Below, piece by piece: positions 5,332 to 23,042 of a stretch of 23,042 nt of DNA. The translations under genes were made by a program, and so were the position numbers. Below the pieces are notes generated by a model. It was not told where the DNA came from, ran no database searches, and saw only the letters and a list, made by a program, of their open reading frames with translations. The stretch is from the IMG/VR virus record IMGVR_UViG_2563366964_000005, positions 1 through 23,042 of that record, one strand, 5' to 3'. This DNA comes from a virus. Taxonomy: Duplodnaviria; Heunggongvirae; Uroviricota; Caudoviricetes. Numbering within the stretch: position 1 is the stretch's first letter; every line of letters begins with the position of its first letter.

Positions 5332-6571
5332 TGTTGATCTCGGGTATGCCATTGGTCTGAAGCCGGAAGAAGCCATCCGCTATTTTGAGTCTAAGGGCTA
5401 CGTCATAGGCTTTAACTGGCACGATGTTGAAGCCCGCACCCATGCCACTGAATTCACGGTCGCAGGCGTTCTTAAGCAGGATATTCTGACCGATATTCAC
5501 GGCGCTCTGCAGGCTCATCTGGAGAATGGCGGCACGCTGCGTGACTTCGAACGCCAGCTGACGCCAACCCTGATTCGTAAAGGCTGGCTGGCCGATAAAG
5601 CACGCTTAATCGCAGATGAGGATGGTGTGCTGGAGGGCAAGCAGCTGACACCACGCCGCCTGCGTACCATCTTCGAAACCAACATGCAGGCGGCGTATGG
5701 TGCCGGACGTTATGAAGAGCAGATGGCCAACGCGGAGTTTCGTCCTGTCTGGGAACGTGTGGCCGTCATGGATTTGCGTACCCGACCGCGACACGCGGCA
5801 CTGAACGGTTTTACCGCCCGCTACGATGATCCGGTCTGGCAGTTCATGTATCCGCCCGATGGCTATCATTGCCGCTGCCGTATCCGGGCACGTTCACTGG
5901 CCGAGGCTGAACGTCTTGGGATTGTGCTTAAATCCTGGGAACAGGATATCGTCACCGTCCAGCAGGCGTGGGGGCCCAATGATACCCGAGAGGTTCAGGC
6001 GCTGCGCTTTAACGGTGAGCTTTATACCCCGGATGCGGGCTTTGGTCACAATCCGGGTCAGGGCTGGCTGTCTTCTCTGGGGCAGCGTCTGATGGACCAG
6101 TCCGTCACTGCACCACCCAGAACGGCCGCGCTGGCCATCAGCGAAACACTTTCCGACCCGGCTGTATTATCTTCCGTCAGCGACGATGTACGCCGATGGG
6201 TGGATGCCGTCAGCGTTCGGGGTAAAACCAGAGGTGACCTCAGGCGTGTCGGCGGGGTTTCGCCTGACTTGCTTGACCGCCTTGAAGAGCGCGGTATTCG
6301 CCAGCCGGTCACACTCAGTATCCATGAATCAGACGTCCGTCAGGCTCCGGGGCCGATGTGGTCAGAACTTCCTGCGCTGCTGGCCAGTGACGGGGATGTC
6401 TGGCTCGATGGTGATAATTTAGTGTGGACGATGGTCGCAGACCAGGGGACTCGCGCGGTCCGGGCTGCGCCTGCTGCAGACGGCTGGCGATTGTCACTCG
6501 TCAATGGCGGCGATGTTATCCGTCCACAGGATATTGCTGATGATGCTGTATTACTGAGGCCGAAACCATGA
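5318..6571 (+). CDS. head morphogenesis protein, Mu F-like
   Basis: ORF opens at GTG 5297; preferred start is ATG 5318 downstream of a GGGGG run; overlaps the portal stop; position and sequence fit the F-like minor head protein family. Confidence 0.8.
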   Translation: MPKADVDLGYAIGLKPEEAIRYFESKGYVIGFNWHDVEARTHATEFTVAGVLKQDILTDIHGALQAHLENGGTLRDFERQLTPTLIRKGWLADKARLIADEDGVLEGKQLTPRRLRTIFETNMQAAYGAGRYEEQMANAEFRPVWERVAVMDLRTRPRHAALNGFTARYDDPVWQFMYPPDGYHCRCRIRARSLAEAERLGIVLKSWEQDIVTVQQAWGPNDTREVQALRFNGELYTPDAGFGHNPGQGWLSSLGQRLMDQSVTAPPRTAALAISETLSDPAVLSSVSDDVRRWVDAVSVRGKTRGDLRRVGGVSPDLLDRLEERGIRQPVTLSIHESDVRQAPGPMWSELPALLASDGDVWLDGDNLVWTMVADQGTRAVRAAPAADGWRLSLVNGGDVIRPQDIADDAVLLRPKP

Positions 6572-7113
6572 GTTATACCATTACCTATGATATCGGCGAC
6601 TTCGAACGTTCTCTGGGCGAGCTCATCAATAAGCTGGAGCAGCGTGAGCCGCTGATGCGGGAAATGGCAGCAGCGATGGCCGATGCGGTTGAAGAGAACT
6701 TTGCCCGCGAAGGTCGCCCGGAGTGGATGGGATGGAGTCCGGCATATGCCCGTAAACGTCATGGCGGAAAAATCCTGCAACGTTCTGGCAGGTTGGCCAA
6801 AAGTATTACGCAGTTCAGTACCAACGACGAAGCGGTTGTTGGTACTAACGTGAAATATGCCCGTATTCATCAGGAAGGCGGTGAAATCAGTATTGCCGCC
6901 AGGAGCCAGCGAGCCTATTACCGCCAGTATAAAAATGGGTCGGTTGGTAATCGGTTCGTGAAAAAGTCGCGGTCTAACTTCACCCAGTGGAATACCATTG
7001 GTGCATATAAAATTAAGATGCCCGCACGACCGTTCCTGCACCTGACCGAGGATGACGTCAGCGGGATGGAAACAACCGCTGAAAGCTATCTCCAGCGTAT
7101 TATCGATGGATAA
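6568..7113 (+). CDS. virion morphogenesis protein, Mu G-like
   Basis: 181 aa; ATGA overlap with the F-like gene; position and sequence fit the Mu G family. Confidence 0.75.
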   Translation: MSYTITYDIGDFERSLGELINKLEQREPLMREMAAAMADAVEENFAREGRPEWMGWSPAYARKRHGGKILQRSGRLAKSITQFSTNDEAVVGTNVKYARIHQEGGEISIAARSQRAYYRQYKNGSVGNRFVKKSRSNFTQWNTIGAYKIKMPARPFLHLTEDDVSGMETTAESYLQRIIDG

Positions 7114-7256
7114 GCGTAACGGCGCTGTAAGCCACGCAGACGCGTTTATCGCAAATGTGGTAGAGTGATTCGCCTCATCCCCTGTTAATCGTTTTTAAAA
7201 GGGGTTTAAAAAGCCCTGGCGATATCGTCGGGGGGCTCATTCGATTAACGGGGGAA

Positions 7257-7466
7257 GTGGTGGAAACCTTCAAGGCATTCCTGGATTATTTTACGGTGAC
7301 GCAATGGGTCATCATTGGGATCGGCTTCAGGGTGTTTCTCTGGATTCTCGATCGCCTGACCGACCGTTATTTCGAACGGCGATTCCAGAAGCGCCGCCAG
7401 TCTCTCCGGAATGAGATGACAGAAAAGCAGAAAAGCCCGCCCCACGACAACAGCCCCCACGCTTAA
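7257..7466 (+). CDS. small putative membrane protein (69 aa) in an intergenic insertion
   Basis: GTG start preceded by GGGGGAAG; one hydrophobic helix (VTQWVIIGIGFRVFLWIL) then a basic tail; lies in a ~400 bp gap between otherwise tightly packed genes. A minus-strand ORF (7245..7460) covers the same DNA, so the coding strand is uncertain. Confidence 0.3.
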   Translation: MVETFKAFLDYFTVTQWVIIGIGFRVFLWILDRLTDRYFERRFQKRRQSLRNEMTEKQKSPPHDNSPHA

Positions 7467-7520
7467 TCACTGAACCCCTTCAACTTATTCCCTTTTTAGT
7501 GGTGCTGTACGCTCAGCACC
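7463..7520 (+). promoter_or_regulatory. conserved 18-bp element (CACTGAACCCCTTCAACT, 7468-7485) plus U-rich spacer and perfect 7-bp hairpin (7501-7507/7514-7520) abutting the ATG at 7521; candidate late promoter or translational control site
   Basis: Exact 18/18 repeat of the element at 19256-19273; the same spacing to the start codon; the downstream gene has no SD. Confidence 0.5.
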
Positions 7521-16116: not shown

Positions 16117-17447
16117 GCTGGGAAGATTCATTACAGGATGCGTCGTTCCGTGGCGTGACCTTTGACGTTGTTAACACCCGTGACAGCGCCAGCCGCGATA
16201 CGGCAGTCTACGAGTACCCTTATGTTGATGGCGGTGACGTTGACGACCTGGGGCGCAAACCGCGCAACCTGAGAATAACGTCGTTATTCTGGGGGGATGC
16301 CTATGAAACCCGCCTGCAGTCATTCCTTGCGGCGCTCGATAAGCGCGGTAACGCGGAGTTGATTCACCCCGTCTTCGGTTCAATGCCATATATGCAATGC
16401 ATCGAATACCAGGCATCCCATGAGGCTGAAAATGTGGATTACTGCGTTGTTGAGGTGGTTTTCCTGCAGGCGAAGCCGGAAGTGCCTTTCTTTGGCAGCG
16501 ATAATCCTCTCTCGCAGGCTGACATTATTTTCAACCAGGTGCAGTCCACTCTCGATATGGCGCAGACCGCCATCGATAATGTGCTCGCTCCGCTGAGAAC
16601 AGCCAAAAAATGGATGAAGCGTATCAAGGGGCTGGCGACCACCTCGCTGAATATGGTGACCGTTCTTAAAGGTGAGCTGACTGGTTTTGTCAGCACGACA
16701 ACTGACTTTATCAACTACCCCAAAGCCTATATGAACGATTTGCAGAGCGCTCTCAGCCTGACATCGCTCTCGTCAAAATCTTCGGTGAGCAATAACCCAG
16801 GGTCTTATGCCAGCACGTCATCGGACGTCACTGGCGTGGCCGGGATCATAATGGCGGACTGGAAGAGCGGTAATACTTCATTGCAGGAAGTCGCAGCATT
16901 ATCCGAGAAACTGATTACAGGGCAGACCACCTCGGCCGTGGCAACGCCTTCAGGTTCTTCAGTCAGCGATATTGCCGAGCTGGTAACCGCGACGCGAATT
17001 CAGGTTGCGCTGCAGCTGGCGACTGATGCTTCCGATATTCTTAGCGATGAAAGCGTCATCACATTACTTTCACCGGATGATGTTGAACAGATCGCCGGTG
17101 ATACTCGTAAGGCTATTCAACAGGCTATTGACCTGACCCGCGAACTGTTTGCAGACGACACTCAGGCCGTCAGCTCATCAGTCAGCGCGAGCGGTGTAAC
17201 CTGGCAGCCTGTTGTTAATGGTCTGAAAGATATCGCGCTGGCCGTCCAGGAGCTGGGGACCACCGTCATCACTCAGCGACCACCGCTTACCACCAGAACG
17301 GTTGAAGCAGACTGTAACCTGCATTTGCTCGCTCATCTCTGGTATGCAGACTACAGCCGAGCCAGCGAGCTGCTGCGCCTGAATCCGACGCTACGTAACC
17401 CCAATGCACTGAAAGCGGGAGATGTACTGAATGCCTACTCAAGATAA
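16113..17447 (+). CDS. DNA circularisation protein, Mu N-like
   Basis: 444 aa; GTG start overlapping the tape-measure stop; position and sequence character. Confidence 0.75.
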   Translation: MSWEDSLQDASFRGVTFDVVNTRDSASRDTAVYEYPYVDGGDVDDLGRKPRNLRITSLFWGDAYETRLQSFLAALDKRGNAELIHPVFGSMPYMQCIEYQASHEAENVDYCVVEVVFLQAKPEVPFFGSDNPLSQADIIFNQVQSTLDMAQTAIDNVLAPLRTAKKWMKRIKGLATTSLNMVTVLKGELTGFVSTTTDFINYPKAYMNDLQSALSLTSLSSKSSVSNNPGSYASTSSDVTGVAGIIMADWKSGNTSLQEVAALSEKLITGQTTSAVATPSGSSVSDIAELVTATRIQVALQLATDASDILSDESVITLLSPDDVEQIAGDTRKAIQQAIDLTRELFADDTQAVSSSVSASGVTWQPVVNGLKDIALAVQELGTTVITQRPPLTTRTVEADCNLHLLAHLWYADYSRASELLRLNPTLRNPNALKAGDVLNAYSR

Positions 17448-18636
17448 AAGCTCGCAGGACAAGGTGAGCCTGATTATTGATGGCAAAGTCCACAGTTCCT
17501 GGAGTCGTTATCAGATTGATTCTGATTTTCTGGTGCCCGCTGACGCCTGGAGTGTGACGATGGGGCTACCTGATGGCGTATTCCCGGCCTCAATTGCGCG
17601 GGGCGTGCCTGTGCTGGTTCGCGTAGGGGATGACGTAGTGATGTCCGGTCGTGTGGATACTATTCAACGTCGCGTATCACGCCAGCAGGTATCTCTGGGG
17701 ATTTCTGGCCGCGATGGTTCTGCCGTCCTTGTGGATTGCGCATCTCCCGTATTCACCTCCCGTCAACTGAGCCTGGAAGAAGTTATCGCTCAGGTGGTCA
17801 GGCCGCTCGGGGTACGAAATATCCGTCTGCAGGCTGAGTCGTCGATGCAGAGCGATAAAGTCAGCGTTGAGCCAGGGGAGCGAGCCTGGGACACTCTGGA
17901 ACGCGCCGCTGCCGCCAGAGGGCTCTGGCCATGGTTTGAGCCTGACGGCACGCTGGTTATCGGTGGTCCGGATTACACGGCCGACCCGGTGGCTACTCTG
18001 GTGCTTAACCGTGATGGCCGTGGGAATAATATTCTCGACCTCAGCGATCGCTCATCTGTGAATGGCTCTTTTTCCGAACTGACCGTACTGGCTCAGGGAC
18101 ACGCTCAGGGTTCTAAGTCTTCCTCAGGGACTGAGATTATCGATGTTTACAGTGATGATGGTGACGACGACAGTGACAATGACCTGTTGACGACGGTTGG
18201 TTCCCCCGAGAGTGGTTTCCATGGTCTCCGCAGTGTCGTTCGTGACCCGAGTGTCTCCTTTTACAGACCTCAAATCATGGTTGTGGGTGATGCTGATAAC
18301 CAGGCGCAGGTTGACTATCGGGCTAAAAAAGCCATGGCAGATGCCCGGCTCAGTGGTTATGAGTTAACCGCTGTAGTGAAAGGTCATCGCATGGAGAGCG
18401 GCAAGCTCTGGGCTCCAGGTCAGCGTATTCGTGTACGCAGCGAGCCCCATGGTATCGACGATATTTTCTTTCTGATGGGCCGGGAATTTAGCGGTGGCCG
18501 CCCCGATAACACCGTCACCACGCTCAGGCTTAAAGAGGATGGTATCTGGATACCCGATGCTTATCCTAAAAAACGCAAACTGCGTAAAAGCCGCGCTAAG
18601 GTTAATAAAAAGCTGGAGATTATTGATGTGGAATAA
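17431..18636 (+). CDS. tail/baseplate hub protein, Mu P-like
   Basis: 401 aa; position; contains an acidic DDGDDDSDND tract. Confidence 0.75.
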   Translation: MPTQDKSSQDKVSLIIDGKVHSSWSRYQIDSDFLVPADAWSVTMGLPDGVFPASIARGVPVLVRVGDDVVMSGRVDTIQRRVSRQQVSLGISGRDGSAVLVDCASPVFTSRQLSLEEVIAQVVRPLGVRNIRLQAESSMQSDKVSVEPGERAWDTLERAAAARGLWPWFEPDGTLVIGGPDYTADPVATLVLNRDGRGNNILDLSDRSSVNGSFSELTVLAQGHAQGSKSSSGTEIIDVYSDDGDDDSDNDLLTTVGSPESGFHGLRSVVRDPSVSFYRPQIMVVGDADNQAQVDYRAKKAMADARLSGYELTAVVKGHRMESGKLWAPGQRIRVRSEPHGIDDIFFLMGREFSGGRPDNTVTTLRLKEDGIWIPDAYPKKRKLRKSRAKVNKKLEIIDVE

Positions 18637-19213
18637 AGTGGATCAGCGGATTAATATGGCTTTAAACCGTATCAGAAACGCATTCAGAGGCGTAATAACT
18701 CGCGTTAACAGCGCGGGGCCTGCGCAGACTATTCAGGGCAAGGGGCTTGGCCCTGAACCGTTACAGGATATAGAACTCTTTCAGCATTATGGTTTCACCT
18801 CTAATCCGCTACCTGGCACGATGGCGGTCGTGTTACCAATTAACGGTAAAACCAGCCACGGTATTGTTATTGCGACGGAGCATGGCCGCTATCGTCTGAA
18901 AGAACTGAAACCGGGAGAAGTTGCACTGTATACGGATGAAGGCTGCAATATTGTTCTTAAACGCGGGAAAATTATTGAGGCTAATTGCGATGATTTTATC
19001 GTGAATGCCAAAAATAAATATTCAGTTAATACCGCCGACTATGATGTCAACGCGACAAATAAAGCAAACTTCGATACACCGCTTCTGAAAGCAACGAATG
19101 ACCTTGCTGACGGTACATCCACGCTCAATAAGGTACGTGAAACTTATGACGACCATGACCACGAGCATGGTGGCGATGCAGGAACTACGGATAAACCTAA
19201 TCAGCTGATGTAA
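18626..19213 (+). CDS. baseplate central spike (gpV / Mu gp45-like) with His-rich apex
   Basis: The ORF track lists 18494..19213, but the likely start is the ATG at 18626 (MWNKVDQ...), 7 nt downstream of GGAG. C-terminal DHDHEHGGD resembles metal-binding apex motifs of spike proteins. Confidence 0.7.
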   Translation: MWNKVDQRINMALNRIRNAFRGVITRVNSAGPAQTIQGKGLGPEPLQDIELFQHYGFTSNPLPGTMAVVLPINGKTSHGIVIATEHGRYRLKELKPGEVALYTDEGCNIVLKRGKIIEANCDDFIVNAKNKYSVNTADYDVNATNKANFDTPLLKATNDLADGTSTLNKVRETYDDHDHEHGGDAGTTDKPNQLM

Positions 19214-19248
19214 TTTGTGGTATTTTCCTGTTTACCTTTCTGAAACTA

Positions 19249-19307
19249 ATTAACCCACTGAACCCCTTCAACTCTTACATTATTTCCATTGCCGATACTA
19301 TGTCGGC
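19249..19307 (+). promoter_or_regulatory. second copy of the conserved 18-bp element (19256-19273) plus spacer and perfect 6-bp hairpin (19290-19295/19303-19308) whose 3' arm ends on the A of the ATG at 19308
   Basis: Exact 18/18 repeat of 7468-7485; loop contains TACTAT (19296-19301), a -10-like hexamer about 7 nt upstream of the start codon; no SD. Confidence 0.5.
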
Positions 19308-19658
19308 ATGGAAATGCTAATTGACCCAGTCACCGGCGACTATACCGGTGACAGCACTGACTCCCTGGCCAATGCCGTTTATTTACGGTTAATGACGCCG
19401 CTTGGCTCATGGTGGGCGGCACCATCACTGGGGTCACTTTTGCACACGCTACAGCGGGAAAAAGATACGCCTCGCGTGCGTAAACTCGCCCGCCAGTACG
19501 CAGAGCAGGCGCTTCAGCCTATGCTGGACGATGGCAGGGCCATATCCATTGATATAACGGCAGAACGCTATCAGCCAGGCTGGCTCCTGCTGCTTATCAC
19601 TGTTACGTCTGCCGGTGTTTCACCGCAGACCTGGAAATATCCGGTTAAGGTGAGCTGA
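19308..19658 (+). CDS. baseplate protein, Mu gp46-like (gp25/GPW-type)
   Basis: 116 aa; position between the spike gene and the baseplate J-like gene. Confidence 0.6.
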   Translation: MEMLIDPVTGDYTGDSTDSLANAVYLRLMTPLGSWWAAPSLGSLLHTLQREKDTPRVRKLARQYAEQALQPMLDDGRAISIDITAERYQPGWLLLLITVTSAGVSPQTWKYPVKVS

Positions 19659-20725
19659 TGCCCTTCGTTACTAAAACAACAGCACAAATCCGCGATGAGC
19701 TGTTGCGTGATATTAAAAACCAGCTGCAACTGACTGACGATAAACTGGGTGAAGACAGCGACTGGTTCGTTCGCGCCTCCAGTGTTGCAAGTGTTGCCGA
19801 GGGGCTTTACCAGCATCAGGGCTGGATTGTTCGTCAGATTTTCCCGGATACCGCTGATGCTGAGTATCTCTACCTTCACGCGAGAACCCGAGGGCTTACC
19901 AAGAAACCCGCTAACAGCGCTTCTGGTCCTGCCACCTTTACCGGACAGCCCAACACGACAGCAGCAGCAGGGTTAGTTTTTAAGCGTGACAGCCAGGCAT
20001 GGACAACAACAGCGGAACTGACCATCGGAGCCGATGGCAAAGGCACTGTTAATGCTGTCTCGTCGGCAAAAGGCACCGCCGGTAATACAACCTCAACCAC
20101 CACTGCCATTCTCAGCACGACGCCATCGGGCCTCGACAGTACGGTGACCGTCGGGATGATGTCTGGTGGCACTGACGAAGAGACTGATGCTGAGTTACTG
20201 GCCCGTTTACTCGATGTTATTCGCCGACCGCCTGCAGGCGGCAATAAATATGACTATAAGCGCTGGGCCCTTGAAGTTGCAGGTGTATCAGCTGCGTATG
20301 TCTATCCTCTGCGTCGGGGTCTTGGCACCGTTGATATTGTGATCACCTCTGCCGGTGGTCTGCCGTCTCAGGATGTTATTGATCGTACTCAGGCTCATAT
20401 TGATGACGTACGCCCGGTGACGGCTAAGAACGCCCTGGTTATTGCCCCGACCATTGTCAATTTTGACGTTTCAGTCCAGGTATCTCTGGATGGTCTGACA
20501 CTAGCCGATGCTACTACGCAAATTATCGCTTCTCTTCAGGATGACGACAGTCGCCGTGAACCTGCCGTGCCGTTTATCCGTAGCCAGGCCGGGACACTGA
20601 TATCACTGATTCCAGGAATTACTGACCGCGAATTTATCGCGCCTGCAGCCAATATCTTCCCGGTCGTCAATGAGGAGAAAGTGGAGTGGCTTCGACTCGG
20701 TAATGTGGAGGTTGGATTACTGTGA
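19658..20725 (+). CDS. baseplate J-like protein, Mu gp47-like
   Basis: 355 aa; ATGA overlap with upstream gene; position and size. Confidence 0.8.
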   Translation: MPFVTKTTAQIRDELLRDIKNQLQLTDDKLGEDSDWFVRASSVASVAEGLYQHQGWIVRQIFPDTADAEYLYLHARTRGLTKKPANSASGPATFTGQPNTTAAAGLVFKRDSQAWTTTAELTIGADGKGTVNAVSSAKGTAGNTTSTTTAILSTTPSGLDSTVTVGMMSGGTDEETDAELLARLLDVIRRPPAGGNKYDYKRWALEVAGVSAAYVYPLRRGLGTVDIVITSAGGLPSQDVIDRTQAHIDDVRPVTAKNALVIAPTIVNFDVSVQVSLDGLTLADATTQIIASLQDDDSRREPAVPFIRSQAGTLISLIPGITDREFIAPAANIFPVVNEEKVEWLRLGNVEVGLL

Positions 20726-21294
20726 GCCATTATACCTTACTGAATTTACTGTTACCCAAAGTCAGTTACAGCCCCGGTCAGCCGGTTCTGGCTGCATCTC
20801 TGCAGGCTGAAGCCCGGGTTTTCGACGATGTAGAGAACTCGGCTGAACTTGCTAAAGGGGGCGTCACGCCCTATATGGCCATGAACCTGCTCTCAGACTG
20901 GGAGCGTGTTCTTGGCCTGACAGCTCAGTCCGGGGCCAGCTATCAGCAGCGCCAGCAGCGCGTGCTGGCCAAACTGGCCGAAACGGGCGGACTCAGCATC
21001 CCATACTTCACCCGACTGGCATCCAGCCTTGGATATACCGTCACGATCGATGAACCACAGCCCTTCAGGGCGGGCACTAATCGCGCCGGTGATCGTCTTT
21101 ATGTTGAAGACATTATCTGGGTGTGGGTTGTGAATGTTAAAAACTCCGGAACGCTGGTTTACCGCTTCCGCGCGGGTAATTCTGCCGCTGGTGAACGGCT
21201 TACCTCATTTGGCGACCCGGTTATTGAAGAGGTCTTCCAGGACTTAAAACCGGCTCATACCTTTTGTTATTTCGCCTATCAGGAAAACGCATAA
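20722..21294 (+). CDS. tail/baseplate protein, Mu gp48-like (DUF2313-type)
   Basis: 190 aa; GTG start overlapping upstream stop; sits between the J-like gene and the tail fibre. Confidence 0.7.
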
Positions 21295-22036: not shown

Positions 22037-22468
22037 ATGGAAAAGACATATTATTTTAATCCCTCTGATTCGGGATTTTATATTTCACCAGATAGCCAAA
22101 CCATTCCTGAGAACGCTACGAAAATAAACTTTACTATTTATTCTGAGTTCGCAGGAGTTGCATGGCCTGATGGTAAAATACTTGGTTCAGATAAAAATGG
22201 TTTTCCAGCATGGCAGGATGCGCCACCACTTACCAGCGAAGAATTAATCTCAATCGCTGAATCAAATAAACAGCGATTAGTTAATCAGGCCAACGAATAC
22301 ATGAACAGTAAACAATGGCCTGGTAAAGCGGCGATTGGTCGTCTGAAAGGTGAGGAACTGGCGCAATATAATTTGTGGCTGGATTATCTGGACGCACTGG
22401 AACTGGTCGATACTTCCAGTGCGCCAGATATTGAATGGCCTACTCCTCCGGCAGTTCAGGCCAGATGA
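22037..22468 (+). CDS. tail fibre assembly protein (chaperone)
   Basis: 143 aa; immediately after the fibre gene; C-terminal DTSSAPDIEWPTPP motif typical of this family. Confidence 0.75.
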   Translation: MEKTYYFNPSDSGFYISPDSQTIPENATKINFTIYSEFAGVAWPDGKILGSDKNGFPAWQDAPPLTSEELISIAESNKQRLVNQANEYMNSKQWPGKAAIGRLKGEELAQYNLWLDYLDALELVDTSSAPDIEWPTPPAVQAR

Positions 22469-23042
22469 CATCCGGCGCGGTACTGGTATCTGTTGCCGTC
22501 ACCGCGTCAATGTAATCCAGCACAGTGTTAAGTCGGGTGGTCTCTGCCTGCATCAGCTTCCGCCCGGCCTGCAATTTCAGTTGAATCAGACTAATGGAAG
22601 CCATTGCAGTATCAATCAGTGACTGACGTTGTGCTTCTGCCGCGTCTACTGCGGCGCTATGCTGTGTCTCAGTATCCGTCACCCATTTCTCACCATCCCA
22701 TTTATCGTATGGCGTTAACGGGGCGATAGTGGTTGTTTTTTCGGGGTAATCACCCGGAGTTGTGATTTCTTTGGCGTCTCCCGTTTCGGTGTTATAGACG
22801 ATTTCACCGCGATGGTCTGGTACATATTCCCATGAGTTAAAATCTGCAGAGCGGCAGATTGCATAACCAGCTTTGTAGGTGCCTGGAGCATCTAAACAGG
22901 AATATGCCGGAATGCCGACACCAACAGCAAGATATTCAGTTGAAGCTGAAATATACTCCCGACTCATGACGTCAAAGTTATAAACAGTAATTTCTCCTGC
23001 CATAGTGGCAATTAATTCACTGTTTAATTCTGCGTTATTCAT
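22440..23042 (-). CDS. second tail fibre assembly protein, opposite orientation (partner of an alternative fibre C-terminus expected beyond the window)
   Basis: 200 aa; HRGEIVY and C-terminal DTSTAPDVIWPELP motifs typical of this family; convergent with and overlapping the + strand chaperone gene by 29 bp; its start codon is at the window edge. Confidence 0.75.
   Translation of the reverse strand: MNNAELNSELIATMAGEITVYNFDVMSREYISASTEYLAVGVGIPAYSCLDAPGTYKAGYAICRSADFNSWEYVPDHRGEIVYNTETGDAKEITTPGDYPEKTTTIAPLTPYDKWDGEKWVTDTETQHSAAVDAAEAQRQSLIDTAMASISLIQLKLQAGRKLMQAETTRLNTVLDYIDAVTATDTSTAPDVIWPELPEE

Follow-up and report, generated by a model that had tools for sequence, protein, structure and literature searches.

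The 94-bp gap between the genes for gp45 and gp46 in a Mu-like transposable prophage (IMG/VR record IMGVR_UViG_2563366964_000005, whose 23,042 nucleotides were all analysed and are called the window here) very probably holds an activator-dependent late promoter, as judged from its sequence and from related prophages. The whole model that we favour, with a probability of roughly 0.62, is that of a Mor/C-type late promoter that would give a leaderless mRNA and that is combined with a hairpin silencing read-through RNA in the manner of T4 gene e. In this model, the prophage's own Mor/C-family activator would bind a dyad about 43.5 bp upstream of the transcription start and would let the host sigma-70 RNA polymerase use the weak -10 hexamer TACTAT without a -35 element. 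Transcription would begin with the A of the AUG of gp46 or with the nucleotide before it, and the promoter-born mRNA, leaderless and unstructured at its 5′ end, would be translated. RNA that started upstream would carry both arms of a hairpin at 19281-19316, in which the AUG would be buried in the absence of a Shine-Dalgarno (SD) sequence, and the first gene of the unit would be translated only from late-promoter transcripts. The same device would head the lysis, head (I) and distal tail (gp46) units.

Putative activator box, spacer and predicted start

The activator box is an 18-mer, CACTGAACCCCTTCAACT, with exactly two copies in the window, both on the + strand, at 7468-7485 (copy 1) and 19256-19273 (copy 2). 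A preliminary description of the gp46 site had located the 18-mer and the TACTAT hexamer (19296-19301) correctly and had called the former a second copy; the sole other copy is indeed that at 7468-7485, which lies upstream of the I protease/scaffold gene, in the same position as PI of Mu. No further match with 3 or fewer mismatches was found in the window, and 100 shuffles yielded none. Contigs virtually identical to the window were retrieved by an exact-protein look-up, and one of them, L082, differs from it at 2 of 10,862 bases and continues to its left (position 9769 of L082 is window position 1). A third copy of the box, TACTGAACCCCTTCAACT, lies at 9052-9069 of L082, 58 nt before the ATG of a GH19 lysozyme gene (L082 9128-9778). 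No copy further to the right was found in three full-length insertions of the prophage, and its total is three boxes, which head lys, I and gp46. The Klebsiella phage ST405-OXA48phi1.1 has boxes at the matching three positions (lys, I and gp46).

The core of the box is the dyad CTGAA-N4-TTCAG. At copy 2 it takes the form CTGAA-CCCC-TTCAA (19258-19271), with its centre between 19264 and 19265, and perfect forms of the dyad, CTGAACCCCTTCAG and CGGAACCCCTTCCG, occur in relatives, where the core is kept on the + strand. The CTGAA-CCCC-TTCAA box does not match the consensus of the Mu C box, TTAT-N5-6-ATAA (PMC12867686). A box outside the recognition set of Mu C is expected, because the activator of this prophage has diverged from Mu C (27-29% identity).

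Downstream of copy 2, a pyrimidine-rich spacer of 22 bp (19274-19295, + strand) leads to the -10-like TACTAT on the same strand, and this 22-bp spacing is identical at the gp46, I and lysozyme copies. TACTAT ends 6 nt before the A of the gp46 ATG, so that A19308 is the seventh nucleotide after it. The first base of the hexamer, T19296, lies 31.5 bp from the dyad centre. When the published Mu promoter oligonucleotides (PMC4461284) were placed on the Mu genome, the -10 of Plys, TAGACT at -12 to -7, showed the same distance of 31.5 bp between the box centre and its first base. A start at A19308 (+ strand), which is predicted from this geometry, would put the dyad centre at exactly -43.5. The site bound by Mu C is an imperfect dyad of 16 bp with its centre at -43.5, and the Mu late promoters have a -10 and no -35 (PMC2582627).

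The preliminary description had also pointed to a -35-like CTTACA in the spacer (19274-19279). This hexamer does lie 16 bp upstream of TACTAT, but its role as a -35 did not hold up, since it matches TTGACA at 4 of 6 positions, has no counterpart at copy 1 or at the lysozyme copy, and is not conserved. Among the 53 related sites described below, the best -35 match is mostly 2-3 of 6, a poor fit across the family that marks CTTACA as incidental. A generic sigma-70 scan called no + strand promoter at the gp46 site. The absence of a conserved -35 fits an activator-dependent promoter that lacks this element, and the gp46 site has a -10 without a -35, as would be expected of a Mu-type late promoter. 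In addition, no SD was found at gp46, where the anti-SD duplex is predicted at -1.7 kcal/mol compared to a median of -8.25 kcal/mol for the other genes in the window.

Relatives were fetched by a search with the sheath protein, which gave 80 prophage loci with 10 kb of flank on each side. Sites were accepted when the box had no more than 2 mismatches, the context was non-coding and an open reading frame (ORF) began 28-46 nt downstream; 59 such sites were on the coding strand compared to 1 on the opposite strand. The curated set holds 53 sites from about 37 Mu-like prophages and phages, whose host groups span several bacterial classes from Enterobacterales to Desulfovibrio. The hosts include Trabulsiella, Pectobacterium, Symbiopectobacterium, Citrobacter, Xenorhabdus and Photorhabdus as well as Chromobacterium, Aquitalea, Vogesella, Cupriavidus, Gallionella, Undibacterium, Duganella, Denitromonas and Desulfovibrio, and the set also contains a Klebsiella phage. 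The 53 sites head I and gp46 and, in some betaproteobacterial phages, also N. At this N position, which follows the tape-measure gene, box/-10/hairpin/ATG units were seen in betaproteobacterial relatives at L049 14641, L050 14093, L066 14588, L068 4347, L071 14647, L073 14501 and L032 15441. L049 and L050 each have three promoters in the structural region (I, N and gp46), and the N-position units show that the position of the tail promoter is mobile within the family.

The geometry of the gp46 site is kept throughout this set. The distance from box to ATG is 38, 39 or 40 nt at 17, 18 and 16 sites, respectively, and box positions C1, G3, A4, T11 and C12 are invariant (53/53). The hexamer pattern xAxxxT is present within the expected window of four offsets at 51 of the 53 sites, compared to 1-10 of 53 when the window is shifted by 4-20 nt, and it ends 6-7 nt ahead of the ATG at 49 sites. 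Numbered from the predicted start, C stands at -1 in 48 of 53 and A at +1 in 52 of 53. The start codon is ATG at 52 of the 53 sites, and other genes in the window often begin with GTG or TTG. No conserved SD was found across the set. The fixed spacing of box, -10 and ATG supports what had been proposed for gp46, namely that transcription probably starts at or next to the AUG.

A candidate for the activator is encoded by the prophage itself. The gene at 8157-8591 of L082 matches the Pfam family Mor (PF08765) with 40.5 bits against a cut-off of 24.9, and it sits between gemA and lys, as in Mu. The similarity of its product to Mu C and Mu Mor is weak, at 27-29% identity in the DNA-binding half, and no other Mor/C-family gene was detected in the prophage. 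The Mor-family gene of ST405-OXA48phi1.1 (L081, MK388859.1, 8304-8774; PF08765, 30 bits) is unannotated in GenBank. The L082 protein ends in EQGKLF and the Mor-like ORF of the Klebsiella phage in QGSLF; the former resembles the C-terminal clamp-binding motif of Mu C, QPDLF (PMC12867686). Taken together, the spacing between dyad and -10, the Mor/C gene, the three boxes and the conservation at 53 sites support the earlier suggestion that an internal late promoter of the Mu type lies within the baseplate gene block.

Hairpins over the translation starts and alternative readings

The gp46 site had been described as a hairpin, TGCCGA/TCGGCA, whose last base is the A of the ATG. These arms are present (19290-19295 and 19303-19308), but they are the inner part of a longer structure. 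RNAfold pairs 19281-19316 on the + strand, with 16 pairs, one bulged U and a loop of 3 nt, and the whole AUG (19308-19310) and the next two codons consequently lie in the 3′ arm. The predicted energy is -19.3 kcal/mol (z = -4.95), and none of 200 shuffles folded as well. The layout of copy 1, which the preliminary description had not covered, is like that of copy 2: the box is followed after 22 bp by a -10-like TACGCT (7508-7513, + strand) in the loop of a hairpin at 7494-7526 (+ strand; -15.1 kcal/mol, z = -3.9), and the gene I ATG (7521) lies in its 3′ arm. The + strand folds better than the - strand. The gp46 hairpin could be formed only by RNA that started upstream of the promoter, and for promoter-born gp46 RNA an unstructured 5′ end is predicted. 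No Rfam family matched the window at its gathering score.

The lysozyme copy is built differently and decides between models. At L082 9052-9128, the box is again followed after 22 bp by a -10-like hexamer, AATACT, and this lies outside the hairpin, immediately 5′ of its stem. The stem has 10-11 bp with arms GACGCCATCC/GGATGGCGTC, and the 3′ arm GGATGGCGTC contains the SD (AGGA) and abuts the ATG. The predicted start, 7 nt past the -10, falls inside the 5′ arm. Read-through RNA of this region folds with -24.4 kcal/mol (z = -4.5), compared to -6.8 kcal/mol (z about 0) and a free SD for RNA from the predicted start. Over the hairpins that were folded, the z-scores range from -3.9 to -5.9. The arrangement is kept in IMG/VR contigs with related lysozyme genes (L087-L100), in which the hairpin shows one double change from G-C to A-T and two G.U pairs, all read on the + strand. 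A -10 in the loop is not the feature shared by the three promoters; what they would have in common is a 3′ arm that covers the translation start and a predicted transcription start that removes the 5′ arm.

Covariation in the 53-site set was scored for each site with swapped-arm and shuffled controls. Own arms gave a mean stem score of 7.3, whereas swapping the arms between sites gave 4.5 and shuffling the sequence 4.0. The stems are diverse, with 32 different 3′-arm hexamers and several Watson-Crick pair types at each stem position, and pairing between own arms despite this diversity indicates that structure is conserved rather than a protein-binding sequence. An alignment anchored on the ATG gave no single consensus structure, because the centre of the hairpin shifts by 1-2 nt between lineages. 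A clear hairpin is predicted for 35 of the 53 sites: 25 of these pair the A of the AUG, and 10 have a 3′ arm that stops 1-3 nt short of the AUG. The A and T of xAxxxT, when they form the loop-closing pair, are always in the orientation A...T. The hairpin does not by itself produce the xAxxxT pattern, which is kept at sites without a hairpin and at sites with a large loop. Non-canonical stem pairs comprise 9 G.T, 3 A.C and 12 others, and the excess of G.T over A.C, together with the better folding of the + strand, points weakly to sense RNA.

The likely purpose of the hairpin, on which the preliminary description was silent, would be to shut off read-through RNA. Terminator scans found no terminator-like site on the + strand upstream of the lys, I or gp46 promoter, so that read-through is to be expected, especially from the mor operon into the lysis genes. 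Taken as a separate claim, silencing of read-through RNA by the hairpin seems to us to have even odds. The 18 hairpin-poor sites keep the geometry of box, -10 and ATG, which makes the hairpin an addition to the promoter and not a part of it.

Another explanation accepts the promoter and takes the hairpin to be a 3′-end stabiliser or processing site of the preceding unit, whose overlap with the promoter would follow from the short gene gap. These hairpins are stable and found at operon boundaries, and the lack of a U-tract terminator makes read-through RNA available for processing. We regard this as unlikely, because it leaves unexplained that all 35 clear hairpins have a 3′ arm which covers the start codon or abuts it and that the predicted start removes the 5′ arm at three promoters of different build.

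An explanation at the RNA level, which we hold to be improbable, dispenses with the promoter: the box would bind a phage translational activator on read-through mRNA and thereby open the hairpin at the AUG, as in com-mom of Mu. The layout would suit it, since the conserved sequence directly precedes, on the 5′ side, a hairpin in which the start codon is sequestered, and so would the sense-strand location of the element and the ability of the dyad itself to form a small stem with a CCCC loop. It does not account for the fixed distance between the box and xAxxxT, which is kept at 51 of 53 sites, some of them without a hairpin, nor for a spacing between box and hexamer equal to that of Mu Plys. 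Moreover, the phage encodes an activator of the DNA-binding Mor/C family, and sequence conservation across bacterial classes extends to both the half-sites and the CCCC spacer, as for recognition of DNA by a protein. A com-mom module is also missing, with no com or mom gene at the right end of the prophage, although small early ORFs were not exhaustively searched.

The hairpin might instead act as DNA. In this alternative the promoter is real, and negative supercoiling or unwinding by the activator would extrude a stem-loop, leave the -10 single-stranded and aid open complex formation, loosely as at the hairpin promoters of phage N4. At the I and gp46 promoters, the -10 lies at the centre of the palindrome, and A(-11) and T(-7) are often the loop-closing pair. 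Nevertheless, the lysozyme promoter and its relatives have the -10 outside the palindrome and still keep the link to the ribosome-binding site, most of the non-Watson-Crick pairs that are tolerated are G.T when read on the + strand, which also folds better than the - strand, and several lineages keep the promoter geometry with no palindrome at all. For these reasons, we give a role of extruded DNA only a slim chance.

A functionless chance repeat, for which nothing speaks except the small size of the element, is refuted by the comparative data and has a negligible probability: no second copy arose in 100 shuffles, and in some 37 prophages and phages from several bacterial classes the same gene junctions carry the element, with a strand bias of 59:1.

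Several points weigh against the combination of late promoter, leaderless mRNA and silencing hairpin. Leaderless mRNAs are usually poorly translated in E. coli, which would be odd for scaffold/protease and baseplate genes. The start has been deduced solely from the position of the -10, both in this phage and in its relatives. Mu late transcripts have leaders of about 24 nt, and a leaderless late message has no experimental precedent in the family. The strand test for RNA structure, at 9 G.T against 3 A.C, is merely suggestive. The hairpin is weak or missing at 18 of the 53 sites and is not essential to the promoter. Finally, gp46 of ST405-OXA48phi1.1 begins with GTG at the predicted +1 (L081, MK388859.1, 29750-29802), the sole start codon among the 53 that is not ATG.

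Gene order and prophage setting

Pfam and PHROG matches identify the window as the late region of a Mu-like transposable prophage. The genes identified are those for a DUF1804 protein (1400-1906), which occupies the position of the Mu small terminase gene, for Mu F, for G (6568-7113), a virion morphogenesis protein, and for the I protease/scaffold (7521-8639, with its ATG at 7521), together with those for the baseplate hub gp44 (17431-18636), gp45 (which ends at 19213), the baseplate wedge protein gp46 (19308-19658, + strand; Pfam GP46, phrog_180) and gp47 (19658-20725), followed by gp48 and tail fibre genes. The gene for gp46 would be the first of the predicted distal tail transcript. To the left of the window, L082 contains a repressor gene, ner, the transposase genes A and B, gemA, the Mor-family gene, an ORF of 152 codons and the GH19 lysozyme gene. 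At the right end of the prophage, gp48 and the tail fibre genes, which include an invertible segment, are followed by a Gin-like invertase gene and then by host genes.

The right flanks of three contigs (L169, L170 and L171) show the prophage at three chromosomal sites, in neighbourhoods with hyf/hyc-like genes, Qin-like genes (dicB, relBE, hokD) and fixABC-like genes. Three insertion sites are consistent with an active transposable phage of Escherichia-like hosts. A megablast search with 2.4 kb of the window (18400-20800) gave no match in the phage collection or among the 5,426 complete genomes of E. coli. An unrelated e14-like element of E. coli, beside icd and pin, encodes a protein 100% identical to the tail fibre assembly protein (22037-22468), for which the collection lists about 2,000 blocks. 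The ORF at 22440-23042 is oppositely oriented, and the Gin-like invertase gene lies downstream of it in L169-L171. For 22037-23042, these features indicate an invertible host-range cassette that is exchanged horizontally.

Two further observations concern the gap between G and I. An ORF of 69 codons (7257-7466) with a GTG start and a hydrophobic stretch lies there; it has no match in Pfam or PHROG, its stop codon ends 1 nt before the copy 1 box, and it is annotated as a gene in 2 of 4 near-identical contigs (L082 and L085). An A/T-tract motif, CGTTTTTAAAAGGGGTTTAAAAAGCC, is found at 7180-7215 and is common to the Klebsiella phage ST405-OXA48phi1.1 and a Trabulsiella prophage. In Mu, the strong gyrase site (cut at 17879/17880, TTTTTTAAAACGCGCC...TTTTTAAACC) occupies the corresponding gap, and because both lie between G and I, CGTTTTTAAAAGGGGTTTAAAAAGCC may be the equivalent of the Mu site.

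Comparison with known systems

Both the promoter class (Mor/C of Mu) and the hairpin logic (T4) are known; what is new is that they are combined, that the geometry would be leaderless and that a distinct box is widely conserved. The literature yielded no description of this box sequence or of leaderless late mRNAs in Mu-like phages, within a coverage that was incomplete, and subscription journals may hold earlier ones. It is conceivable, at slightly less than even odds, that in a large and phylogenetically wide clade of Mu-like phages the late operons are served by activator-dependent promoters whose start is the AUG itself, with leaderless messages for the head protease and baseplate proteins. 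A hairpin around each promoter would then make translation of the first late gene strictly dependent on the promoter from which the RNA came, a general scheme of promoter-gated translation.

CTGAA-N4-TTCAG is a candidate recognition site for a widespread, unstudied branch of Mor/C activators, a branch that currently attracts interest because it binds as a tetramer and uses the sliding clamp. That leaderless mRNAs serve for the translation of structural late genes in a phage of enteric bacteria is an unusual prediction that can be tested directly, and if true, it would provide a natural case of abundant leaderless mRNAs for structural genes in Enterobacterales. It would also extend the T4 trick of placing a late promoter within an inhibitory hairpin to an unrelated phage group and another promoter type, and the parallel suggests a convergent way of preventing the expression of lysis and assembly genes from read-through RNA. 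In practical terms, the box and its fixed distance of 38-40 nt to the ATG could be used to annotate the starts of late operons and the true start codons in Mu-like prophages.

The closest relatives among characterised promoters are the C-dependent late promoters of Mu (Plys, PI, PP and Pmom). They share a bipartite dyad box with the 31.5-bp spacing to the -10 seen at Plys, a recognisable -10 without a -35, several copies that head late units including lys and I, and a Mor/C-family activator encoded just upstream of lys. The systems differ in the box (TTAT-N5-6-ATAA in Mu, CTGAA-N4-TTCAG here), in the activators (Mor plus C in Mu, one Mor/C gene detected here) and in the place of the tail promoter, which is inside gene N at PP and between gp45 and gp46 here. 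In addition, Plys and PI have leaders of about 24 nt with an SD, whereas the predicted start here is the AUG, and Mu has no comparable hairpin around the -10. An inverted repeat, CTGCTCA/TGAGCAG, does straddle the mapped start region of Mu PI (L086 18010-18056). A leaderless start at Mu PI was considered and rejected, since the ATGATG beside the start belongs to a short out-of-frame ORF and gene I begins about 25 nt downstream.

The hairpin logic has its precedent in T4, where RNA of e, soc, 49 and I-TevI that was initiated upstream forms a hairpin which sequesters the SD and/or the AUG and is translationally silent (PMC3014915). The T4 late promoter lies within the DNA for the 5′ part of the hairpin, and late transcripts lack this part and are translated (PMC3014915). 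In the present prophage, the AUG at 19308-19310 is likewise paired in a predicted hairpin of -19.3 kcal/mol whose arms covary in relatives, and the lysozyme copy is a close formal parallel to the T4 arrangement. However, the predicted machinery here is sigma-70 with a Mor/C activator as opposed to gp55/gp33 in T4, two of the three promoters would give no leader, and the case here is known from sequence alone.

As for the leaderless mRNA, temperate phages offer examples such as lambda cI transcribed from PRM, which starts at the A of the AUG, has no SD and strictly requires the AUG. The gp46 site is similar in its predicted start at the A of the AUG and in its lack of an SD, and differs in that the messages would be those of late structural operons from an activator-dependent promoter. 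Finally, Com/mom of Mu also has a hairpin that occludes the start codon beside a conserved element. A zinc-finger protein that binds RNA opens the hairpin of Mu, whereas in this prophage the hairpin is most likely bypassed by the choice of promoter.

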